64,000 nt of DNA from Deltaproteobacteria bacterium. Its GTDB lineage: Bacteria; Desulfobacterota; Dissulfuribacteria; Dissulfuribacterales; QOAL01. The DNA lies in assembly GCA_026992735.1 (NCBI GenBank), contig JALWYO010000017.1, positions 373-64,372 on the forward strand, in the 5' to 3' direction. Of this stretch, positions 1-57,051 are shown in pieces (positions within the stretch are counted from its first letter, which is position 1; each line of letters opens with the position of its first letter). A program made the translations under genes and the position numbers. The notes beneath the pieces are model-generated. The model made no database searches and was not told the DNA's origin. It saw only the letters and a program-made list of their open reading frames with translations.

Positions 1-349
1 AGCGCTTGTTCATATCCGTTCGGAGCTCGGCAAAACGCTTGTCCATCATTTCGAAGCGTTTGTTCATATCCATGCGGAGCTCCTCGAAGCGCTTGTTCAC
101 CTGCTCAAAGCGCTTGTTCATATCAATCCGAAATTCATCAAAACGCTTATCTACCTGATCAAAGCGCTTGTCTACCTGATCGAACCGTTTGTCTATCTGC
201 TCAAAGCGTTTGTCCACCTGGTTCAGGCGCTCGTCAATGCGAATAAGCAGTGCATGGTCCTTATCCGAAAGGCTGCCTGCCAGGGACAAGGCAGGAAACA
301 GCAAGCATACAGCAAGCATAACTGTGGAACATAGGCGAATTATATTCAT
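1..349 (-). CDS. Secreted heptad-repeat (D/NKRF) coiled-coil-like protein, N-terminal part only (gene runs off the window start)
   Basis: Absent from the ORF track because the window edge truncates it. Reverse-strand ATG at 349-347 follows GGAG. Translation is MNIIRLCSTVMLAVCLLFPALSLAGS (signal peptide), then LNQVDKRFEQIDKRFDQVDKRFDQVDKRFDEF..MNKRFEQVNKRFEEL..MNKRFEMMDKRF. These are 7-aa / 21-nt repeats. Confidence 0.7.
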   Translation of the reverse strand, partial: MNIIRLCSTVMLAVCLLFPALSLAGSLSDKDHALLIRIDERLNQVDKRFEQIDKRFDQVDKRFDQVDKRFDEFRIDMNKRFEQVNKRFEELRMDMNKRFEMMDKRFAELRTDMNKR

Positions 350-476
350 GAGAAATTCTCCGGTCCGGTCATATATATTTAAGTTTAATACGGATGGCCG
401 TTACGAACAAGCTGGAATGCCGGGACAGAAAAACCGCGACCCGATGCTCATTTTTCATGATCCCCGTTCAGGATGA

Positions 477-1151
477 TCAGCGTCTCAACAAGGTAGACAC
501 GAGGCCCCTGATCCTGCCCAGCCAACCGGGCTGACGGCCCCTTTTACCCGTGAGCCTGACATCACCCATGCTGCCAAGCCCCCCCCTGGACCCGGCAACC
601 CTCGCAGGCACTCCCCTCACCACGGCACAGGGCGGCACATCCCTGGTAACAACGGCTCCTGCAGCCACCACTGCGCCCTGCCCAACTGTTACACCCTGCA
701 AAATCATGGCGCCCGCAGCTATCCAGGCACCGTCTTCGATGACTATCCTGCCGTATGTCAGGCCATGGCGGTATATGGACAACGGCTCCCCGTCTATATC
801 ATGACCGGCGCTCAATATCTTTGCCCCAGGGCCTATAAGAACTTCATCCCCTACATCCAGTCCGCCTTCTCCTGACAGGTAGGCAAAGGCGTTTACCATC
901 GTCATGGAGCCTATCCTGATAAAGGCCTCGCCATTCTCGGCAAGATCGCCGAGGACAAGCCGGACATGATCAAACAACACGACCCGGTCACCCAGGAATA
1001 TGCCCCGTCCATCTTCAGATAGGCCAAGAGAACGGTAAGCCGTCACGCTGGAGGCAACACGCACGTTGCTGCCCGCTGAATCCAGCCATTCAGGAGACCG
1101 GACAGGATCGATTATGCCTGGCAGGCCAACAAACCTGCTTTCCCCTTTCAT
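477..1151 (-). CDS. Hexapeptide-repeat (left-handed beta-helix) acyl/acetyltransferase
   Basis: 224 aa. Imperfect hexapeptide repeats: IGPGAKILSAGHDIDG...IEDGAWIAAGAMILQGVTVGQGAVVAAGAVVTRDVPPCAVVRGVPARV. Lies directly downstream of wzt. Confidence 0.8.
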   Translation of the reverse strand: MKGESRFVGLPGIIDPVRSPEWLDSAGSNVRVASSVTAYRSLGLSEDGRGIFLGDRVVLFDHVRLVLGDLAENGEAFIRIGSMTMVNAFAYLSGEGGLDVGDEVLIGPGAKILSAGHDIDGEPLSIYRHGLTYGRIVIEDGAWIAAGAMILQGVTVGQGAVVAAGAVVTRDVPPCAVVRGVPARVAGSRGGLGSMGDVRLTGKRGRQPGWLGRIRGLVSTLLRR

Positions 1152-1164
1152 GCGTGGCAGCCCC

Positions 1165-2415
1165 TTAACTTTCCTCTATATGCCAATGGTGTTCCAGGGC
1201 CACTATGCCCATTTCCGACGGATCTGATCTCACTGAAAACCGGCACACACCCTCTGCCATGTCCAGGACCTGGATGCCGTGGTCATCCAGGAGGTAAACG
1301 AACAGGGAATATTCACCGGACAGTATCGGGAAACCGGGTATCTCCAGCAAGGCGTTAACCTTTCCCAGACCGATAACCGGTTCCAGGCCCTGCTGCATCG
1401 TGGTGGTAAAAAATATATTTATTCCGTCATCTCTCTGGATGACAACCGCAACGTGAAACGGCACATCCGTATCCAGCACATCCACGCTGATCTTCACTGC
1501 CGCATCCCGGTGGGACAACAGCCTGTTGACAGCCCTGCCCCTGGCATCAAGAATTTCTATACGGGTAATCTTGACAGGGGCAGGCTGTCCTGCAGCAGAA
1601 AGGGCCTTGTTCTCTACCGGAATATTTTCAGCCCCATTATCCTGCCTGAGGCTGCCCTCCTTTTTCCTCTGGTATGCCTCGTAGGCAGACACAACGTCCT
1701 CTGTTTCCCCGAATGCCTCGACACGGCCGTTTTTCAGCCACATGGCCCTTTGGCACAGGGTCCTGACCTGGTACATGTTATGGGAGCAGAACATGATGGT
1801 CCTGCCGGCCTCCCGAAAGCCCATGATCCTGTCCAGGCTCTTCTTCTGGAAATGTATATCCCCCACTGAAAGGGCCTCGTCCACCACCAGCACATCCGGT
1901 TCGACACAGGTGGCTATGGCAAAACCGAGACGGACAAACATGCCCGAGGAATACGTCTTGACGGGACGTTCAAGGATAGCGTCGTCAAGCTCTGAAAATT
2001 CCGCTATCTCACTGTAGCGTGCCCTTATCTCCCTTTCGGAAAGGCCCAGTATTGCAGCCTGCATGAATATGTTCTCCCTGCCGGAAAGCTCGGGATGAAA
2101 GGCAGCGCCAAGCTCCAGTAGAGCGGAAACCATTCCCCTGACCTCCACGGACCCTGAACTGGGCCTGGTTGTGCCTGCAACGATCTTGAGAAGCGTACTC
2201 TTGCCGGCGCCGTTTTCCCCTACAACGCCGAATGTTTCGGACTTTCTCAGAACAAGGTTGACATCCCGCAAGGCCCAGAAATTCCTGTGCAGGGTCTTCC
2301 TGAAAAGAATCTCCCTGATCCTGTCAACCGGCCTGCTGTACAGGCGGTACACCTTGGAGACATTCTTCAATGTGACAGGGTAGGCTGCTTTCTGGAAAAC
2401 AGAGACAGATTTCAT
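1165..2415 (-). CDS. wzt: Glycan (O-antigen/teichoic-acid type) ABC exporter, ATP-binding subunit with extended C-terminal domain
   Basis: Walker A GENGAGKST, signature YSSGMFVRLGFA, Walker B VLVVDEALSVGD. I trimmed the start to ATG at 2415-2413 (MKSVSVFQK...), which overlaps the wzm stop as ATGA. About 170 aa follow the NBD, which fits a Wzt-type carbohydrate-binding tail. Confidence 0.85.
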   Translation of the reverse strand: MKSVSVFQKAAYPVTLKNVSKVYRLYSRPVDRIREILFRKTLHRNFWALRDVNLVLRKSETFGVVGENGAGKSTLLKIVAGTTRPSSGSVEVRGMVSALLELGAAFHPELSGRENIFMQAAILGLSEREIRARYSEIAEFSELDDAILERPVKTYSSGMFVRLGFAIATCVEPDVLVVDEALSVGDIHFQKKSLDRIMGFREAGRTIMFCSHNMYQVRTLCQRAMWLKNGRVEAFGETEDVVSAYEAYQRKKEGSLRQDNGAENIPVENKALSAAGQPAPVKITRIEILDARGRAVNRLLSHRDAAVKISVDVLDTDVPFHVAVVIQRDDGINIFFTTTMQQGLEPVIGLGKVNALLEIPGFPILSGEYSLFVYLLDDHGIQVLDMAEGVCRFSVRSDPSEMGIVALEHHWHIEES

Positions 2416-3215
2416 ACCTGGTCGGCAAGGATCGGCGCCACAAGCTGGTAAAATGCCGGCCCGAGGAGAACGGCCAGCAAGGTCCAGGCCGCCATCATGC
2501 CCGGCATCCACTCTGGCATTGACATGCCTAAAAATGCCCACTGGTAGCACATGATGAACGGAGTAAGCGGATTGGACCAGATGATGAATGGCCTAAAAAA
2601 GGCCGGAACCATCTTCAGCGGGTAGAGTATGGGAGTCAGGTAAAACCAGAACTGGAGAATTATGCCAACTGCCTGGATGGAATCCCGAAATACAGCGCCA
2701 AGGGCTGCCAGCAAATAGGCCATGCCAAGCATTAGTAGGACCTGGCATGCCATGATACAGGGGACCCAGATGATCCTGCCGGGTTCCATCAGCCCGCTGA
2801 ATGCCAGCATAATGAAGTATGCCGAGAATCCCACAACCTGCGGAACCAGGGAGACTATCACCACTGTCGCGGGGATTATATCCATGGGGAAAACCATCTT
2901 CTGGACAAGGAAACCGTAGTCCACCAGGCAGGACGCGGAACGTCCAAGGGACTCGGATAGGGACATCCAAGGGATCAGCCCTGCCAGCAGGTAAAAGAAA
3001 TACCCGGATGAGCTGGCAAGGTCCGGTATCTTTATCTTCAGCACAAGGGAAAAAAAGACGTAATACAGGGCTATGGTACAGAGTGGCACAAGCACTGCCC
3101 ACACTGCTCCGGCGGCAGTGCCGGCATACCGCGCCCTGATCTCCCTCCTTGTCCATAGGAAAAGCAGGTAACGGTTCCTGAGGATGTTTTCAACCAATGT
3201 CTTAAGATAACGCAC
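2412..3215 (-). CDS. wzm: ABC-2 type glycan exporter permease
   Basis: 267 aa, about 6 hydrophobic segments. The N-terminus (RREIRARYAGTAAGAVWAVLVPL) is typical of ABC-2/Wzm permeases. Translationally coupled to wzt. Confidence 0.85.
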   Translation of the reverse strand: MRYLKTLVENILRNRYLLFLWTRREIRARYAGTAAGAVWAVLVPLCTIALYYVFFSLVLKIKIPDLASSSGYFFYLLAGLIPWMSLSESLGRSASCLVDYGFLVQKMVFPMDIIPATVVIVSLVPQVVGFSAYFIMLAFSGLMEPGRIIWVPCIMACQVLLMLGMAYLLAALGAVFRDSIQAVGIILQFWFYLTPILYPLKMVPAFFRPFIIWSNPLTPFIMCYQWAFLGMSMPEWMPGMMAAWTLLAVLLGPAFYQLVAPILADQV

Positions 3216-3254
3216 TTATATTCAAAAAATACAGAAGGAAGTATCCATAAAAAT

Positions 3255-3484
3255 TAATTACTCAAGTTTCTGACTTGGGCTAACCTATTGAAAATTAAGC
3301 AAAAATATTTATATCTGCTAAATTCTATTTTTTGTTGCAGTATTCAATAAGAATAGGTAACAATTAGTAGTAGTTTGTTGCTATATTATGCGTTTAATAT
3401 AGCAACATAAAGCGAATTCGGGCGTTGCATGAAAAAACTTTTTAATTACAGCATGATATATCAACTCCGAAACTTGAGTAATTA
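3255..3484. repeat. 16-bp perfect inverted repeat (TAATTACTCAAGTTTC) flanking a 198-bp AT-rich segment, just upstream of wzm
   Basis: 3255-3270 is the exact reverse complement of 3469-3484. An inner 11-bp hairpin GTTGCTATATT/AATATAGCAAC lies at about 3376-3405. No flanking direct repeat was found. Confidence 0.8.
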
Positions 3485-3487
3485 CTA

Positions 3488-3517
3488 AACCAAAACGGCG
3501 GCCCATAAGGGCCGCCG
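3488..3517 (-). terminator. Rho-independent terminator after the 3550-4710 gene
   Basis: Stem CGGCGGCCC (3496-3504) / GGGCCGCCG (3509-3517) with a 4-nt loop. On the minus strand it is followed by TTTTGG. Confidence 0.8.
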
Positions 3518-3549
3518 TACATTACTCACGCCGTAATAGGCAAGCGGTC

Positions 3550-4710
3550 TTAGCGTTGTCCTCCTCCTAAGCCCAAATCAATCCCGAGTTCGTCAGCAGC
3601 AGTCATATCAGCATAAAGCTGATTACACGCTTTCGTGTTACAAATATATTCCGCAGGCATCAGGGTCTGAGCGGCCCGCAAATGGTACTTGGCTGTCACG
3701 TAGGAGAAGCCGAAGGCACCGAAGGTCATATCGCCAGTATATATTTCGTTATATAACTGATCTGTATTGATCATCGGGAACATATAGGCCTTGGGTATGC
3801 GAAGGAATCCCTCGTTGAATCCCGGCCATGCACCGCCAAAGGAATCATTTGCAGGCACGAATGCATGCACCTCGCACTTGAACGGGATGCTGATGGAGTG
3901 GTAATGCTCATCAGCATCAAAGACCTTTACAGGGCACCACAGGATGTCAGGATTCTGGGATGCGGGATCCAGGTTGTCAAAAAAGCACTTGCCTGGAAGA
4001 GCGCCGCCTGGTGCAAGCCGCCAGAACTCGTTAATACATGAGGTTGTCCAGAGCTGTACATGAGTACATGCTTCGAAATCAGGATCAAACCAAAACCTGA
4101 AATCCACCCAGCCATGATCCTCCTTAAAGCCATTATACAATGCCTTGATAGACCTCTGGTTCATGGCAGTAAGATCCAAAAAACCAGCAGGATCCATGTT
4201 GTAATCACACAATTTGTCTGGATCTGCACAGATCAGGTTAAGAACCGGGATGAAAACCGCGTCATCGGCAGCTATATCAACCATGAATGCGTTAGCGGCC
4301 ATGCTGAAACCATCCACAAAATCATTGTCATTCATGGGGTCATTATTATTATTAGCCCTTCCATTCTTACTCAGGAAAGGATCGTCATTGGCCGTGAATA
4401 TCATATATCCATCCTTGTTGGATGATACATTTTGGTTCAGGGACCATAGCACCAAGTCATTGGCAGTACACTTGATCTGGCCATCTTCAACATGATGGCT
4501 GTAATTATCAAAATATACCCACCATATAATTTCCTTTTTCGGGCAGAGAATACCTACCACCGTATCTTTCTGCGCATGATCATGCACAGTAACCGGCACC
4601 AGGACACCCTTGCTATACTTACCAAATGTAGCTGCATTTGCATGGCTCGCAATGCCCAGCATCACGAACGCAAATGCCGTTGCCATTAATAAGGGCATAA
4701 GTTTCTTCAT
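3550..4710 (-). CDS. Secreted Cys-rich protein of unknown family (paralog A)
   Basis: 386 aa. Signal peptide MKKLMPLLMATAFAFVMLGIASHANA, strong SD (AAGGAGG). Clear paralogy to the 4820-6007 product. No motif I can assign. Confidence 0.85.
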   Translation of the reverse strand: MKKLMPLLMATAFAFVMLGIASHANAATFGKYSKGVLVPVTVHDHAQKDTVVGILCPKKEIIWWVYFDNYSHHVEDGQIKCTANDLVLWSLNQNVSSNKDGYMIFTANDDPFLSKNGRANNNNDPMNDNDFVDGFSMAANAFMVDIAADDAVFIPVLNLICADPDKLCDYNMDPAGFLDLTAMNQRSIKALYNGFKEDHGWVDFRFWFDPDFEACTHVQLWTTSCINEFWRLAPGGALPGKCFFDNLDPASQNPDILWCPVKVFDADEHYHSISIPFKCEVHAFVPANDSFGGAWPGFNEGFLRIPKAYMFPMINTDQLYNEIYTGDMTFGAFGFSYVTAKYHLRAAQTLMPAEYICNTKACNQLYADMTAADELGIDLGLGGGQR

Positions 4711-4819: not shown

Positions 4820-6007
4820 CTAATGAGTATAAGAAGGGCAATACGGACAAGGCCCGACATTCTCATGTTCGGGATTATCAGGTACATCCACCGGAGTGCC
4901 ATTGCAATCCTGCACCATTTCGGCTGCGAGGAGTGTCTGTGCTGCCTTCACATGCACCTTGGCAGTGATATACGAGAAGCCGAACGCACCATTCTTATAG
5001 TCACGCGAATACGTGGCGGTACCATTAACCGAACCATCTGGCGGGAATAAATAGGTTATAGGCATGCGGATAAAACCATCTGACCAGCCGGGCCAAGCAT
5101 CGCCAAAGGAATCATTTGCAGGCACAAACTGATGCAATTCGCACTTTAAAGGCAGAGAGAGAGACATCATGTGTTCCTCATCATCAAACACAAACACGGT
5201 GCACCAAAGAAGGTCCGGAGCCTGGGACTGAGGATTCAAGTTATCAAAAAAGCACGCGCCGTTCAGTACATCAAATGCCCTCTTCCACTGCTCATTAAGA
5301 CATGCGGTCGTCCATATGGTAACATGTGTGCATGCCTGGAACTCGGGATTGAACCAGTACCTGAAATCCACCCAGCCACAGTTGGATACCTGATCAGCCT
5401 CGGGATTAAAAGGATCAGAAAGAAAAGGCCCTGGTCCCCTGAAACCACTTACAAGACTTACGACGGAATTCTGATTCATCTTCTGGAGATTTGTGCCCGC
5501 AAGATAATCACTGACATCTATCATGGGCGTGGGCACGAAAATGGCGTCATCATCCTCAATGCTGGTGTAAAAGGCATTGCCTGCAATACCCTGGGTTCTG
5601 CACTGCTGATTGAGCATTGGGTCAACTTTCCAGGCCTTTCCTGTACACTGGCTTTTCTTTGTCTTATCATTCGCCATGTCACCGTTGGCGGTGAAGACCA
5701 TATAGCCGTCCTTGGTAGAATGAACTCTCTCGTTCATGGAAAACAAGATAAGGTCATTCTTGGAACAGGGAATATGACCATCTTCCACGTGATGACTGTA
5801 TTCATCAAAAAGGGTCCACCATATCATGGACTGCTCGCTACAGATAATTCCTATTACCGTGTCGTGATCACCATGATCATGAACAGTTGCCGGCACCAGA
5901 AGACCCTTGGCGTACATGCCAAGGTCAATAGCGCTTGCCTGGCGGGCAAAACCAACCATCGCAAACACAAATGCCGTTGCCATTAATAAGGGCATAAGTT
6001 TCTTCAT
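4820..6007 (-). CDS. Secreted Cys-rich protein of unknown family (paralog B)
   Basis: 395 aa. Signal peptide MKKLMPLLMATAFVFAMVGFARQASA and the same SD as paralog A. Shared blocks include GWVDFRYWFNPEFQACTHV, CFFDNLNP, FVPANDSFGDAWPG and GAFGFSYITAK. Confidence 0.85.
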   Translation of the reverse strand: MKKLMPLLMATAFVFAMVGFARQASAIDLGMYAKGLLVPATVHDHGDHDTVIGIICSEQSMIWWTLFDEYSHHVEDGHIPCSKNDLILFSMNERVHSTKDGYMVFTANGDMANDKTKKSQCTGKAWKVDPMLNQQCRTQGIAGNAFYTSIEDDDAIFVPTPMIDVSDYLAGTNLQKMNQNSVVSLVSGFRGPGPFLSDPFNPEADQVSNCGWVDFRYWFNPEFQACTHVTIWTTACLNEQWKRAFDVLNGACFFDNLNPQSQAPDLLWCTVFVFDDEEHMMSLSLPLKCELHQFVPANDSFGDAWPGWSDGFIRMPITYLFPPDGSVNGTATYSRDYKNGAFGFSYITAKVHVKAAQTLLAAEMVQDCNGTPVDVPDNPEHENVGPCPYCPSYTH

Positions 6008-7761: not shown

Positions 7762-7902
7762 TTTGCGTGCCAGACTTACGAAAACATGAAAATCTCATGA
7801 TATCAAACAGATAATAAAAAGGGCATCCTGCTCCACTGGCCAGATATGACCCCTCATGGCCATGGGTGAATAAAATCAACCAGGCAAAGGACAACACTGC
7901 CG

Positions 7903-8165
7903 TAATCCCGGATTATGCAGCTCGCAAGTTTGCCGAAGATGCGAGGCAGAGGGCACGCAGACGTACTTTGGTACTTCAACTGCCCGATAACAAAGCAGAT
8001 TCGGCAAACTTGCGAGCCCCTTGCGGCTTCAAATGCCTGAGGATTTATCATGGATTGAACTTCACCTTCTGGGTGAAGACCCAACGGTAACAGATGCATG
8101 ATAACTATTTGATAATTCATATAAATTATTTTCTTCAGGCATTTGAAGTGCATAATCCGGGATTA
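7903..8165. repeat. Nested perfect inverted repeats (three stems) filling the GT / secreted-protein intergenic region
   Basis: A 7903-7919 pairs with A' 8149-8165 (17/17). B 7920-7937 pairs with B' 8000-8017 (18/18). C 8027-8042 pairs with C' 8133-8148 (14 contiguous). An inner hairpin CTTCACC/GGTGAAG lies at about 8060-8078. A' overlaps the stop codon of the 8163-9359 gene. Confidence 0.85.
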
Positions 8166-15384: not shown

Positions 15385-17331
15385 TCACTTATCTGCAAGC
15401 GGGCATTCCAACAGCTGTCTCAATATTCGGCCGTGGGCGGTATCATTGCCTGCCATGCCACAGGTATCTTTTACCCTGTCCCAAAACGCTTTGTCAGCAG
15501 TACGGGCATGACAGGAAACACATGTGCCTATGCGGCGTATGCGCTGGAGCTCTTCCCTGCTAAAGGGACGGGCCCTGTCATGGCTTGTAGCCTGGATCTG
15601 GGTGCCGTTATCACTAACGATCCTCTCTAACTCAAACGTGATGCCGAGGCCGTTGGCCTTGGGCCTGTATATACCGGTGCCAAGCCCCAAGGCCTTGGGG
15701 TTTGCATGGCAGTCCTGGCATGACCTGGCCCTGGCGCTCACGGTGTGCGGCTGGATGGGATTGGTGGCTATCCCAGACAGGCCGTCATAGGTGGTAAAGA
15801 CCTTGTTGAGCGCCACTGTCCTGCCATCCGGCCCTATGCCTGTAAAAAAGACCTGACAGCCAGGTATAAACGGGGAAACTCTGCCCTCTGCATTGATACC
15901 CAGGGCCGGGCTCTCCCAGCGCAGGTAAGATCTGGTCTCTCGCCACTTACAGCAAGCCTTCTTTGCATTGACCGCTCTGCCCGCCATGGTTTCGTCCGGA
16001 ACATTATCATTCTGCAACCAGTCATGGGACCTCGTGGTACAGTCCTGCTGGGCATGACAGCCGTAACACTGGGGCGCCCACCTGGAATGACAGGCATAAC
16101 ACTCAAGCGCCTGCATGTGGCCGGAGATGCCCATTGCAGCCCTGGCTGAACCTGGGCCATTCTCGATTATTGTCTTTACCTGCGGCACCGGATGCCTCTC
16201 ACCCGTAACAGAAACAAGCACCACCTTTGAGCCTTCATGCTGCAAACGGTCAATGGGATTGCCCCAGGAAGTCTTCAGGGTTGTTGCACGGGTGGCAGTG
16301 CCATGGCAGTCCTGGCACTCTATTTCCACTGCCTGTTCTTTCTTGCTGTAGATGTTCCCGTCTCCATGACAGTCCTGCTCGGTGTGGCAATCCACGCAGT
16401 AAAGGCCCTTTTCAAAATGTACATCAGGCTGGAGATGATTGTAGTCTTTTCCATGCAGCTTTACAGCGCCTTTCTTACCTGGCCTGCCTGACCATGGAGA
16501 GCCATAACCATCTGATTCCATGGTACCTATGAAACTAACTCCCGTGCGCCCACCCCTGTTATGACAATGTATGCATTGCGCTGGGGGGATGATCCTGGTC
16601 AGCCTGTGCTTAATGGGCCATCCGCGCATGGAACCGGCAACTCTGCCATGCAGCGACACGGCCCTGTCATTGCCTTTGTACCTGCCATCATCGCCATAGG
16701 GCATGTGACATGCAGCGCAGCCGCTGGAGCGGAAATCCCCTGGGCGCTCCATGCCATAACTGTACAGGTGACACCTCAGGCATTCCTCTCTCAGGTAATC
16801 GTCAGCCGGGCTGTTAAATGGACCGGCAGAGACCGAAGGCCTATAGGAAGGCAGGCTGTCCAGGCGCGGCAGCGCACCGCGATCAGCAGGAACGTCTCCA
16901 TCCTTGTCTCTTACCGCATAATTTGCATAAAGTGCATTTTTTGTCTTCTGGGCAGCCCAAGTATAACGGGTTGCGCTGATTATGCCAGCGCTTGTGGCAT
17001 GGAGAGACTTGCGTGAACGGGCCAGTATCTCTGCATGACACTGCCCACAGGTCTTGTCAGCCACCCTGTAATCCGACGGATTTGCCCACATGCCACTGTG
17101 TGCATCCTCCCTGGAAGCGGCTTCAGGATGACCGCGGTGGCAGAACTGACATGCAAGTTCCTTCATGGGAGAAAGAGAAGAGATCGGCTCTATGCCTGCG
17201 TGACAGGAAAGGCATCCATGCCCTGCACGGCATATCCCTGGCCATGCAACAAGCACACACAGACATAACATTGCAGCCTGACATGACCAGATGCAGGCAT
17301 TACTGAAGAATGCTGTAATCAACCCTGCCAT
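15385..17331 (-). CDS. Dodecahaem c-type cytochrome
   Basis: 648 aa with 12 CxxCH motifs: CLSCH, CQFCH, CGQCH, CLRCH, CAACH, CIHCH, CVDCH, CQDCH, CYACH, CYGCH, CQDCH, CVSCH. Hydrophobic N-terminus. The first start overlaps the upstream moeA-PBP gene by 13 nt. An alternative start is M21 at 17271. Confidence 0.9.
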   Translation of the reverse strand: MAGLITAFFSNACIWSCQAAMLCLCVLVAWPGICRAGHGCLSCHAGIEPISSLSPMKELACQFCHRGHPEAASREDAHSGMWANPSDYRVADKTCGQCHAEILARSRKSLHATSAGIISATRYTWAAQKTKNALYANYAVRDKDGDVPADRGALPRLDSLPSYRPSVSAGPFNSPADDYLREECLRCHLYSYGMERPGDFRSSGCAACHMPYGDDGRYKGNDRAVSLHGRVAGSMRGWPIKHRLTRIIPPAQCIHCHNRGGRTGVSFIGTMESDGYGSPWSGRPGKKGAVKLHGKDYNHLQPDVHFEKGLYCVDCHTEQDCHGDGNIYSKKEQAVEIECQDCHGTATRATTLKTSWGNPIDRLQHEGSKVVLVSVTGERHPVPQVKTIIENGPGSARAAMGISGHMQALECYACHSRWAPQCYGCHAQQDCTTRSHDWLQNDNVPDETMAGRAVNAKKACCKWRETRSYLRWESPALGINAEGRVSPFIPGCQVFFTGIGPDGRTVALNKVFTTYDGLSGIATNPIQPHTVSARARSCQDCHANPKALGLGTGIYRPKANGLGITFELERIVSDNGTQIQATSHDRARPFSREELQRIRRIGTCVSCHARTADKAFWDRVKDTCGMAGNDTAHGRILRQLLECPLADK

Positions 17332-40916: not shown

Positions 40917-40934
40917 GTTTTATCGCCTCCTCAA

Positions 40935-41115
40935 GTAACTTCTCAACAAATCTGCAAATTACAAGTTTCTGGACACAGATGAACACAGAAACACACAGAT
41001 TTTCTTTGTCTTTCATCTGTTTACGAAGCCTGCGTCTATCTGCGTCCTCAGTTTGCATCTGCGCCTACCTGTAAGCAGGTACAGAAGAATTTGCACGGGC
41101 CTATTGAGAAGTTAC
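40935..41115. mobile_element. MITE-like element A (181 bp) with terminal inverted repeats and an 8-bp target-site duplication
   Basis: TIRs are GTAACTTCTCAA (40935-) and TTGAGAAGTTAC (-41115). The direct repeat CTCCTCAA abuts both ends (40927-40934 and 41116-41123). The inner arms extend the match (..CTGCAAATT / AATTTGCAC..). No ORF. Sits 10 nt upstream of the adh SD. Confidence 0.75.
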
Positions 41116-41223
41116 CTCCTCAAAAACCAACAATTCTAAATCCCAGGCAAATAAATAAGGCGGCCTGGAGAAGAACAAGACCGCCTTGATAATCATTGCA
41201 ACGATAAGCATGGAATCTGTAGG

Positions 41224-53449: not shown

Positions 53450-53524
53450 TGGTAGGCGCGGGCGGGATCGAACCGCCGACTTCTACCGCGTCAAGGTAGC
53501 GCTCTCCCCCTGAGCTACGCGCCT
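53450..53524 (-). tRNA. tRNA-Val (anticodon GAC), CCA encoded
   Basis: Reverse complement folds as a cloverleaf: AGGCGCG TA GCTC AGGGGGA GAGC G CTACC TTGACGC GGTAG AAGTC GGCGG TTCGATC CCGCC CGCGCCT A CCA. Confidence 0.92.
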
Positions 53525-54882: not shown

Positions 54883-57051
54883 TTAAACTCCCGGTCCTGT
54901 GTAGCTGTCTGCCTTTACCTTCCATATCTGATAGGAAGGAGAATGCAGGCTGACAGGTTCAAAATAATGGCCTGGATTATGCCTCACGAACAGCTTGTTA
55001 AATACTGACTCCGCCATATTTCCATCCATTACCGCACCAAATCCGGCACTGGGCACTATCTCCAGGTTGAGCCCCCCCTCCCTGTGATAGTTCCTGATGC
55101 TCACCTTGTTGGGCAATCTCATAACCAGCCTGTTCAAGGGGAGCTGCTTGCCCCTGAACAGCATAATTCCTTCTCTGCGGGAGGCCTTCATGGGAAACCT
55201 GTCTCCGGAAACTCCTGTAATCTGATCGCCTTTCATGGTGACCCCGTACAATGCCACGTAATTAGGGTGAATGCCATCGTGCGTTACCGGGTTCCAGGAG
55301 CCCAGCCAGTACCACCAGTAAGAAGTAATGGTTAGCCTCCAGTCCAAGAACAGGAAAACCGGGCGGGAACTGCCTGGGAAAAAGAACCTGAGCCAGTCCT
55401 CGGTTGTCTTTATGTCTCCCTGGGGTTCCAGGCTGGCCTTGGTTATTATGTCCCGGGCCTTTTCCGGGCCTGCAGCCAGGACCTCCTTTATCAGGGCAAA
55501 GCCCTTCTTCACATCCCCGCCACAGGCCTTATAGACCTTGTGGGTCCCGTTATTGATGCCCCTTTCCACAAAAAACTGCATCATGTTTGCCGAAAGCCTG
55601 TAGTTATCCGTGGTAAAGGGTATGCCGTTAAACACGGAACGCTCTCCTGCGTGAACCTGGCCGTCATTTACAGTCGCCCTTCTGGCCCAGTAGATCATGG
55701 GATAGCCATGATCCCACCATGCCCATATCACTGAATCTGCAGGCGTTTTCTCGGATGCATCCACCATCCCCTGTATCAAGAAAGGGGGCTCCTTGGGCCA
55801 GAATGTCTTGAGCATGCCCTTCTGAAAAGACGGAATCACGAATATAAGGGCGATGAGTGGGGCTGCCACTGTACAGACCCTGAAACGCGCCTTCATGCGC
55901 CAGATCTCGCTGATTAGAAAACCTGCCCCCAACGCGAGCGTAGGCGCAAGGAATATCATGAACCTCTTTGCAAAGAAAAATGACAGGCAGGCCAGTATGG
56001 CAGGTACTGCTATGTATATCCCCCTTGTCCTGAAACGCCAGAACAGGAACAGAAGGCCTGCAATGGAAAGCAAAAACGTGCCTATGTTATCCGTGGTCTT
56101 GGCTGCAATCTCGCTTACGGAGGGCACAACCTGCTCGGAAATAGTCACCCCTATGTTTGGAAAATCACCCTGCACCTGCTTTGATATGTACTTGTAGGAG
56201 CTTAGAATCCCCTCCATTGTCCTGATGGGTAGCTTCATGCCCTTCAGGACCATGACCGCTACTGCTCCCGCGCACAGGACACCCAGGAAGATCATGGCTT
56301 CACGCCTGCCGGGCCTGTAAAAAAAGACTATGCTTGCAGCAAGGGGCAGCAGGGCGACTGCAGTGGTAACCTGCGGTGTCTGGTCCCACCACCATAGGAA
56401 CAGAAGATAATTGACAATAGCCCCTGCAAACCACAGGTATCTCCTGCGGTCCGCAGTCTCTCCAAACTTCATGGCAAGATATACGGCCATCATGGCAAAC
56501 GTGACATTCATGCAGTCTGTATCAAACCAGCCGAGACAGCTCCGGTACACATAGTAGAAAGACATGATGGCAAACAAGCCTGAGGACAGGCCCATAAACG
56601 ATCCCCCATAGAAACGCCCTATGCCGTAAACCGGGAAAAAGAGAAGGATACCCAGGAGCGCAGGGGTAACGGCTCCTATCCAGTTAAACGATACAGAACT
56701 TAAACTGTGGACTGCATTCCCTATCCATGAAAGAAGAGGTGGAGGCATGGGCCTCGGAGGACAGTCCGGAACAGCCCTGGTCTCGTCAATGGGTTTATAA
56801 TTGTTCTCAGCAAGATCTCTGGACAGCCTCAGGTAATAATAGCCGTCAAAGGTGGTAAGCAAGGGCTCTCCCTGGTACAGGGCCCTGTCAGGATTGGCCT
56901 CCCAGTCCCTGATATCCTCCAAACGAACCAACAATCCCAGGCAAAGAATTACCAGGATCAAAACAGGCTCTATCCACCTTGCGTTCCTTGTCAATGTTCT
57001 GTCCTCCTGTGTGTCATCACCATATCGATGCAGCCAATGATAAACAATCAC
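54883..57051 (-). CDS. pglB: STT3/PglB-family oligosaccharyltransferase
   Basis: 722 aa. About 13 N-terminal TM segments with TTFDGYYYLRLSRD (first periplasmic-loop acidic motif). The periplasmic domain carries WAWWDHGYPMIYWARRATVNDG, matching the WWDYGY catalytic signature of PglB/AglB/STT3. Confidence 0.85.
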   Translation of the reverse strand: MIVYHWLHRYGDDTQEDRTLTRNARWIEPVLILVILCLGLLVRLEDIRDWEANPDRALYQGEPLLTTFDGYYYLRLSRDLAENNYKPIDETRAVPDCPPRPMPPPLLSWIGNAVHSLSSVSFNWIGAVTPALLGILLFFPVYGIGRFYGGSFMGLSSGLFAIMSFYYVYRSCLGWFDTDCMNVTFAMMAVYLAMKFGETADRRRYLWFAGAIVNYLLFLWWWDQTPQVTTAVALLPLAASIVFFYRPGRREAMIFLGVLCAGAVAVMVLKGMKLPIRTMEGILSSYKYISKQVQGDFPNIGVTISEQVVPSVSEIAAKTTDNIGTFLLSIAGLLFLFWRFRTRGIYIAVPAILACLSFFFAKRFMIFLAPTLALGAGFLISEIWRMKARFRVCTVAAPLIALIFVIPSFQKGMLKTFWPKEPPFLIQGMVDASEKTPADSVIWAWWDHGYPMIYWARRATVNDGQVHAGERSVFNGIPFTTDNYRLSANMMQFFVERGINNGTHKVYKACGGDVKKGFALIKEVLAAGPEKARDIITKASLEPQGDIKTTEDWLRFFFPGSSRPVFLFLDWRLTITSYWWYWLGSWNPVTHDGIHPNYVALYGVTMKGDQITGVSGDRFPMKASRREGIMLFRGKQLPLNRLVMRLPNKVSIRNYHREGGLNLEIVPSAGFGAVMDGNMAESVFNKLFVRHNPGHYFEPVSLHSPSYQIWKVKADSYTGPGV

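Follow-up and report, generated by a model that had tools for sequence, protein, structure and literature searches.

A transposase-less element with IS4-family ends probably accounts for the inverted repeat upstream of wzm in a deltaproteobacterial genome

What is the perfect 16-bp inverted repeat that stands immediately upstream of wzm, the permease gene of the wzm-wzt O-antigen export operon, in the genome of a Deltaproteobacteria bacterium? The repeat lies in a 64,000-nt stretch of DNA (contig JALWYO010000017.1 of assembly GCA_026992735.1, positions 373 to 64,372 of the forward strand), which was analysed as a whole and is called the window below. An initial annotation, made from the letters of the sequence, had taken the repeat and the DNA between its arms for an invertible promoter, possibly in its OFF state, and had named a non-autonomous element as the alternative. 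Our results favour the alternative. The segment is very probably a MITE-like element (MITE, miniature inverted-repeat transposable element), a transposase-less derivative of an insertion sequence (IS) of the IS4 family, ISPepr1 type.

The repeat itself is real and lies exactly where it had been placed. TAATTACTCAAGTTTC occupies positions 3255-3270 on the plus strand and its exact reverse complement positions 3469-3484, with a spacing of 198 bp and with the wzm start 39 nt away. The complementarity continues imperfectly further inward (up to 44 nt at 73%), and the whole 230 bp (3255-3484) can be aligned to its own reverse complement with 66% identity. In first-order Markov simulations of the window, perfect inverted repeats of 16 bp or more with arms no further than 400 bp apart numbered 0.007 per 64 kb, and the probability of such a repeat in a 334-nt sequence of the local AT-rich composition was about 1e-4 by simulation, well beyond chance. 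The AT-richness of the enclosed DNA was equally evident, the GC content being 0.26-0.29 over 3201-3500 versus about 0.52 in the flanks.

As judged from its sequence, the 16-bp repeat appears to be a composite of a perfect terminal inverted repeat of 10 bp, CTCAAGTTTC, and a target duplication formed by the 6-bp palindrome TAATTA. Because TAATTA is a palindrome, it extends the terminal repeat to an apparent perfect inverted repeat of 16 bp, and since the duplication is hidden inside the repeat arms, no separate direct repeats are visible. The earlier statement that flanking direct repeats are absent is thus true outside the 16-mer, but TAATTA, the outer 6 bp of each arm, is itself a direct repeat. 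The element is bounded by the end pair CTCAAGTTTC and GAAACTTGAG. Past base 10 its two ends diverge (CTCAAGTTTC-G-GA-G-TTG versus CTCAAGTTTC-T-GA-C-TTG).

The interior offers little that could be compared with other sequences. Its longest stop-free stretch is 31 aa, and it has no match in the window or among about 150 fetched loci. Rfam gave no match in the element, whether gathering thresholds were applied or E values up to 1 were allowed. The element is strongly self-complementary (DNA fold z = -4.4, RNA fold z = -6.4, relative to shuffled controls), and in the RNA fold of -88 kcal/mol the terminal repeats pair with each other. An internal hairpin had been reported as 11 bp long. It is present, but as a perfect stem of 13 bp (3376-3388 / 3395-3407). 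We considered this hairpin as a terminator and ruled it out, as no T-run follows the stem on either strand.

The origin of the ends became apparent from a scan with the 16-mer of a collection holding one genome per species (genome_contigs). It returned at least 119 loci, all of them outside the host genome; a second copy of the element from the window was not seen among the loci listed. GCAxx or GGAxx follows the 16-mer in more than half of these loci. Many matches lie at contig ends, and several loci contain two inverted copies. In a Nitrincola metagenome-assembled genome (MAG; locus L023), two perfect copies of the 16-mer bound a 1.65-kb element, which at 1651 bp stands at the upper end of the size range. 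It encodes a 492-aa DDE transposase that matches the NCBIfam model NF049925 (IS4 family transposase) with 273.6 bits (cutoff 250) as well as Pfam DDE_5 and DDE_Tnp_1, and that carries the Y-2-R-3-E-6-K (YREK) motif, YALRWGIEVYFKEAK. A tblastn search of the window with this protein found nothing.

The same ends were found on elements of 1535-1587 bp that encode transposase homologues (L055, L129, L147, L162, L166 and L174), which brings the transposase-bearing elements with these ends to seven. The four homologues that were scanned (L174, L147, L166 and L055) score 369-559 bits with NF049925, while the transposases of this group are only 22-29% identical to the L023 protein. The likeness to the window extends beyond the terminal 10 bp. 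L174 holds a 1553-bp IS whose left end differs from its right end, CTCAAGTTTCTGACTTGATC, at the same two positions at which the ends of the window element differ (G/T at position 11, G/C at position 14). At the wzm-distal end, the likeness to IS ends reaches inward to about 3443, with 94% identity over 34 nt to L161 and L164 and 84–89% over 37 nt to L155, L163 and L167. The GGAGTTG end lies beside the transposase start in L174 and L147 and beside the transposase stop in L161, L164, L155, L163 and L167. Given this inconsistent placement, we do not claim that a transposase promoter points at wzm. A full-text literature search with the end sequence retrieved only unrelated primers.

Members of the ISPepr1 subgroup of the IS4 family have been described as 1500–1600 bp long, with ends of the form YT-AA-YTT---A, a preference for 5'-CT ends, AT-rich targets and direct repeats of 7–8 bp (De Palmenaer, Siguier and Mahillon 2008; PMC2266710, Table 1). 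Both CTCAAGTTTCGGA and CTCAAGTTTCTGA, the CTCAAGTTTC-GGA and CTCAAGTTTC-TGA ends, match this consensus at all specified positions (8/8). The full-length relatives, 1535-1651 bp long and flanked by AT-rich duplications of 6-8 bp, appear from their sequences to fit the subgroup in their YREK-type transposases passing NF049925, their ends, their size and their targets. The window element resembles the subgroup in its 5'-CT end and in its AT-rich target. It differs in being 218 bp long and devoid of a transposase, so that it is a derivative and not an IS.

If the end of the element is set at 5'-CT, exact flanking direct repeats of 6–8 bp are found at 14 elements with these ends, the window included. 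They read TTAATTA (7 bp) in L117, L064, L067, L055 and L129, TAATTAA (7 bp) in L101 and L134, TTATATAA (8 bp) in L033, TCACAA (6 bp) in L132, and TAATTA (6 bp) in L023, L028, L046, L127 and the window; in L160 the two copies of a 7-bp repeat differ by one mismatch. Among these, TTAATTA, TAATTAA and TCACAA are not palindromic. Conservation ends just outside ACTCAAGTTTC in 28 metagenome matches and about 70 genome matches, and the flanks beyond it are variable and AT-rich. The metagenome matches came from a scan of metagenome_contigs with a degenerate 22-mer that covered both ends and left the outer bases unconstrained. We also tried an element end at ACTCAAG with a duplication of 4–5 bp. It was dropped, since with 5'-CT ends and 6–8-bp duplications more elements are matched exactly, in accordance with what has been published on the subgroup.

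Short elements with these ends are not restricted to the window. About 12 other genomes contain transposase-less elements of 100–432 bp that share these ends but not their interiors, and most are flanked by exact 6–8-bp duplications. Miniature derivatives have thus arisen from this IS group repeatedly. Two such elements without a transposase, each about 385 bp long and 81% identical to each other, lie on different contigs of one Flavobacteriaceae MAG (L058 4737-5123 and L067 948-1331). At L033 642-2990, a single left end has two right ends as partners, at distances of 100 bp and 2349 bp, and the outer pair is flanked by the 8-bp duplication.

Eight contigs of the JGI metagenome Ga0256840 (L148, L153, L159, L165, L168, L170, L171 and L172) stop 97–126 nt into one and the same IS end, CTCAAGTTTCTGACTTGATCTATTC... 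Such a pattern is typical of an ISPepr1-type IS present in many copies, at which the assembly breaks; the organism, from a hydrothermal sample, has about 45% GC. Related full-length IS copies occur in hydrothermal-vent metagenomes of the same sample series, Ga0256840 among them, where at least eight contig ends carry a closely related IS end. The genes on L170 and L172 share only 38–58% protein identity with genes of the window and no Ga0256840 contig matches the window at the DNA level; the IS-bearing contigs appear to come from a different organism.

Several observations weigh against reading the segment as a MITE-like element. A 6-bp palindromic duplication in a single-copy sequence is indistinguishable from an extension of the inverted repeat, and 6 bp is shorter than the 7–8 bp given for the ISPepr1 subgroup. 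The assignment to this subgroup is based on the published consensus string and size range, not on an alignment to ISfinder reference elements. The 64-kb window contains no second copy of the element, and the JGI metagenome scan for both ends returned, for this element, only the same wzm locus (L152). Three Logan contigs run unbroken through it. Without a second copy and with these unbroken contigs, high copy number, a usual attribute of MITEs, has no support here. Finally, an empty site was not found: in related genomes the genes and sequences upstream of wzm differ and could not be aligned with the window.

Could the segment nevertheless be inverted by a site-specific recombinase, so that the 198 bp switch wzm-wzt on and off and the assembly represents the OFF state? 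The arrangement of a repeat, about 200 bp, a second repeat and then a surface-glycan export operon is that of an inverton. In addition, a GTGGTAAAA motif found upstream of wzm in related genomes is missing in the window, so the promoter must come some other way, for which an invertible segment would be one solution. Correia MITEs of Neisseria, according to a review, carry promoters and can invert (PMC10969869). We compared orientations across strains. Exact-protein look-ups with Wzm and the 386-aa protein encoded upstream of it retrieved 19 loci of the same species from at least 14 ENA, NCBI or Logan assemblies, 97.6–100% identical to the window over about 10 kb. All 18 of the 18 loci that hold the whole intergenic region are identical to each other in it, and the element has the orientation of the window in every complete copy of the locus. 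It is thus fixed in one orientation in these assemblies, and a 31-mer spanning the inverted junction, GGTTTAGTAATTACTCAAGTTTCTGACTTGG, had 0 matches in genome_contigs and metagenome_contigs. L007 breaks off within the element at about 3354, and L152 does so at about 3330. These two contigs consist of native sequence and stop far from the repeat boundaries, which is where inversion would split the assembly graph.

The enzymatic and promoter components of a switch were not apparent either. As had been noted before, the window lacks a recombinase gene, and no integrase, resolvase or recombinase domain (Phage_integrase, Resolvase, Recombinase) was found in any open reading frame of 150 aa or longer across the 64 kb, which leaves room for a distant invertase. 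The proposed promoter TTGAAA-N18-TATATC has a spacer of 16 nt, not 18 (TTGAAA 3288-3293, TATATC 3310-3315). Its -10 hexamer lacks the final T, and the site is absent from the output of two promoter scans. On both strands, 3255-3484 was free of sites in a promoter scan, and under relaxed settings there were only 8/12-position matches, consensus scans being weak evidence either way. The closest named homologues of PheS, in a Thermodesulfobacteria bacterium MAG (83%) and in Dissulfuribacterales / Dissulfurirhabdus (69%), place this uncultured lineage near Thermodesulfobacteria and Dissulfuribacterales, and sigma-70-type promoter rules should therefore apply to it. Consensus assemblies are compatible with rare inversion, which limits the one-orientation result. 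Overall, an invertible promoter seems very unlikely at this locus, the more so as the repeat is accounted for by a transposon end plus a target duplication, and the element would not be expected to flip at an appreciable rate. Still harder to accept is an ordinary AT-rich promoter region whose inverted repeat is either accidental or a palindrome bound by a regulator, with no mobile element in its history. The segment is intergenic, lies upstream of an operon and is single-copy in all data examined, as such a region would be. However, the low probability of the repeat in the local composition, the recurrence of the same ends with 34–37 nt of subterminal likeness on transposase-bearing IS in other phyla, and the lack of the element at the wzm loci of relatives all speak against it.

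We also reconsidered the resemblance to another sequence of the window that had been described as MITE-like element A (40917-41223). The claimed likeness comes down to a mere 10-nt match, CAAGTTTCTG, with E = 16, that is, a chance match. Element A was rejected as a relative: it has a perfect 12-bp inverted repeat of its own, GTAACTTCTCAA (40935-40946 / 41104-41115), unrelated to the IS ends. It lies in the intergenic region between an Fe-ADH gene and a PPDK gene.

The features of the wzm locus are listed in Table 1. All genes here are on the minus strand, in the order 386-aa gene, terminator, element, wzm, wzt (with ABC_tran and Wzt_C domains) and a hexapeptide transferase gene.

Table 1. Coordinates of the element and its neighbours in the window
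Feature	Position	Strand	Remarks
wzm (ABC-2 permease, ABC2_membrane)	2412..3215	-	GTG start; 39 nt downstream of element
Probable target-site duplication TAATTA, wzm-proximal	3255..3260		Outer 6 bp of 16-bp repeat arm
MITE-like element body	3261..3478	-	218 bp, 30% GC, no open reading frame
Terminal inverted repeat, wzm-proximal end CTCAAGTTTCTGACTTGG	3261..3278	+	Right-end type of full-length IS in L174; fits ISPepr1 consensus
Central perfect hairpin TGTTGCTATATTA, 6-nt loop, TAATATAGCAACA	3376..3407		13-bp stem
Terminal inverted repeat, wzm-distal end CTCAAGTTTCGGAGTTGA	3461..3478	-	Left-end type of L174 and L147
Probable target-site duplication TAATTA, wzm-distal	3479..3484		Exact flanking direct repeat
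Strong intrinsic terminator of 386-aa gene	3495..3518	-	10-bp GC-rich stem then TTTTGGTTT; 10 nt before distal TAATTA
Gene for secreted 386-aa protein, upstream	3550..4710	-	No Pfam match, near-orphan

The start codon of wzm is preceded by TTTTTTGAATATAA (window 3216-3254), which contains no Shine-Dalgarno-like purine run, and the N-terminus of Wzm aligns with the N-termini of its relatives. The 386-aa protein could not be used to find orthologous loci, because a search of 5.8 billion proteins gave only three matches: the query itself, a 395-aa paralogue and one distant JGI protein. The 395-aa protein is encoded next to it (4820-6007); both are secreted and without Pfam match, and they are 50% identical.

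Eight wzm loci of relatives were fetched, seven of them distinct in sequence, with Wzm 76–84% identical to that of the window. All lack the element, which on this comparison does not appear to be ancestral to the wzm locus; as the genes upstream differ, these loci provide no alignable empty site. Their regions upstream of wzm measure 175–370 nt, have a normal GC content and contain a terminator. The relatives (L139-L146, L175 and L176) have in common the GTGGTAAAA(A/G) motif 55–80 nt before the wzm start. It looks like an extended -10 element and may possibly be part of their promoter. Their wzm genes also have purine-rich ribosome-binding sites, unlike that of the window.

From these data, we can propose how the locus came about. 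An ISPepr1-type transposase supplied in trans would have inserted the 218-bp element at an AT-rich TAATTA, downstream of the terminator of the 386-aa gene and ahead of the wzm start, and would have duplicated this target. The uninterrupted site before insertion would read CGTTTTGGTTTAGTAATTAATTTTTATGGATAC. The element would now be a passive relic, immobile unless a cognate transposase is present elsewhere in the genome. The insertion left 10 nt between the terminator and the distal TAATTA and 39 nt between the element and the GTG. With so little space, no purine run and the relatives' motif absent, wzm-wzt may depend for its transcription on a weak promoter that lies within the element or at its edge, or else on read-through of the upstream terminator. 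In the case of read-through, the element would fold into a long RNA hairpin.

It is conceivable, if doubtful, that the transposon-derived element has gone on to become a regulatory module of wzm-wzt. This could tentatively be imagined through an internal promoter, through a hybrid promoter at its edge, or through an RNA hairpin that sets the stability or processing of the transcript, as in the RNase III cleavage of Correia transcripts. The 10-nt and 39-nt gaps leave little room for a promoter outside the element, and the motif upstream of the relatives' wzm is missing here. Wzm is 100% conserved across strains, and the operon is presumably expressed. The strong RNA fold with its paired termini points in the same direction, and both MITE-borne promoters and RNase cleavage of MITE transcripts are documented for other elements (PMC10969869). 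On the other hand, the best candidates on the sense strand are weak (TTGATA-16-AAAAGT, and TATCAT with a poor -35), and the promoter scan finds none. The lack of single-nucleotide polymorphisms (SNPs) in the element is uninformative, as the neighbouring 5 kb have at most about 1 SNP per kb. A more specific version seems unlikely: the relic would have been co-opted as the control region of wzm-wzt O-antigen export, in this hydrothermal lineage, either as its sole promoter or as an RNA hairpin that gates read-through from the glycan genes upstream, and might flip at low frequency via its terminal repeats, as reported for Correia elements. If this were true, low-frequency flipping of a co-opted relic would amount to a MITE-based phase switch, the chances of which we regard as lying between slim and very slim.

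In kind, the element is a bacterial MITE, like Chunjie or Correia, from an IS4 ISPepr1-type parent. Chunjie, a MITE from Geobacter uraniireducens strain Rf4 (Chen et al. 2008), is, as far as the cited accounts go, 178–235 bp long and A+T-rich and forms a very stable RNA hairpin (PMC3184786, PMC10969869). According to the same accounts, it resembles the window element in size, in its deltaproteobacterial-type host, in A+T-richness, in having terminal and direct repeats and in its stable RNA fold, and it occurs in intergenic regions and inside operons. They give 21-bp terminal and 9-bp direct repeats and dozens of copies for Chunjie, in contrast to the one copy found here. Going by these accounts, the different repeat lengths suggest another parent element.

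Correia elements of Neisseria are likewise short, have terminal inverted repeats and lie immediately upstream of genes, and the TA that they duplicate, being palindromic, blends into the inverted repeat. They are reported to carry promoters and IHF sites, to be cleaved by RNase when folded as an RNA hairpin, and to invert (PMC10969869). They differ from the window element in their length of 100–157 bp, their 26-bp terminal repeats, their hundreds of copies, their experimentally mapped promoters and their IHF site. Invertons of surface-polysaccharide loci share with the window the short inverted repeats around some 200–300 bp directly upstream of a surface-structure operon. Bacteroides-type invertons and fimS of E. 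coli exist in both orientations in populations and have a cognate serine or tyrosine recombinase and a mapped internal promoter. We looked for these three features in the assemblies, in the 64-kb window and by promoter scans, respectively, and found none of them.

A few further observations were made in the window. The window has three perfect inverted repeats of 16 bp or more, versus the 0.007 expected, and they are accounted for by the one at wzm together with a cluster at 7903-8165. This cluster consists of interlocking inverted repeats in and around an open reading frame of 99 aa (7854-8153, minus strand) without Pfam match: 23 nt at 91% (7920-7942 / 7995-8017), 17 nt at 94% (8027-8043 / 8132-8148) and 38 nt at 74% (7903-7940 / 8128-8165). 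Strain differences are concentrated in window 1-1000, which contains the gene for the hexapeptide transferase along with its downstream sequence; 39–82 of the 41–144 differences per locus fall there. The gene content downstream also varies by strain, with genes of 198 aa in some and of 212 aa in others, and the glycan cluster may thus have a recombination boundary here. The window also encodes an STT3/PglB-type oligosaccharyltransferase (54883-57051), a 648-aa multihaem cytochrome c (15385-17331) and a tRNA (53453-53524).

The end CTCAAGTTTC is common to IS4-family elements whose transposases are as little as 22–29% identical, and the hosts of these elements belong to the Bacteroidota, to Desulfobacterota-like lineages and to the Gammaproteobacteria. 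The locus also calls for caution. Inverton finders seek just this signature, short inverted repeats with a spacing of about 200 bp that lie upstream of surface-glycan operons, and a MITE inserted into a palindromic target mimics this signature exactly, while hiding its own target duplication in the repeat.

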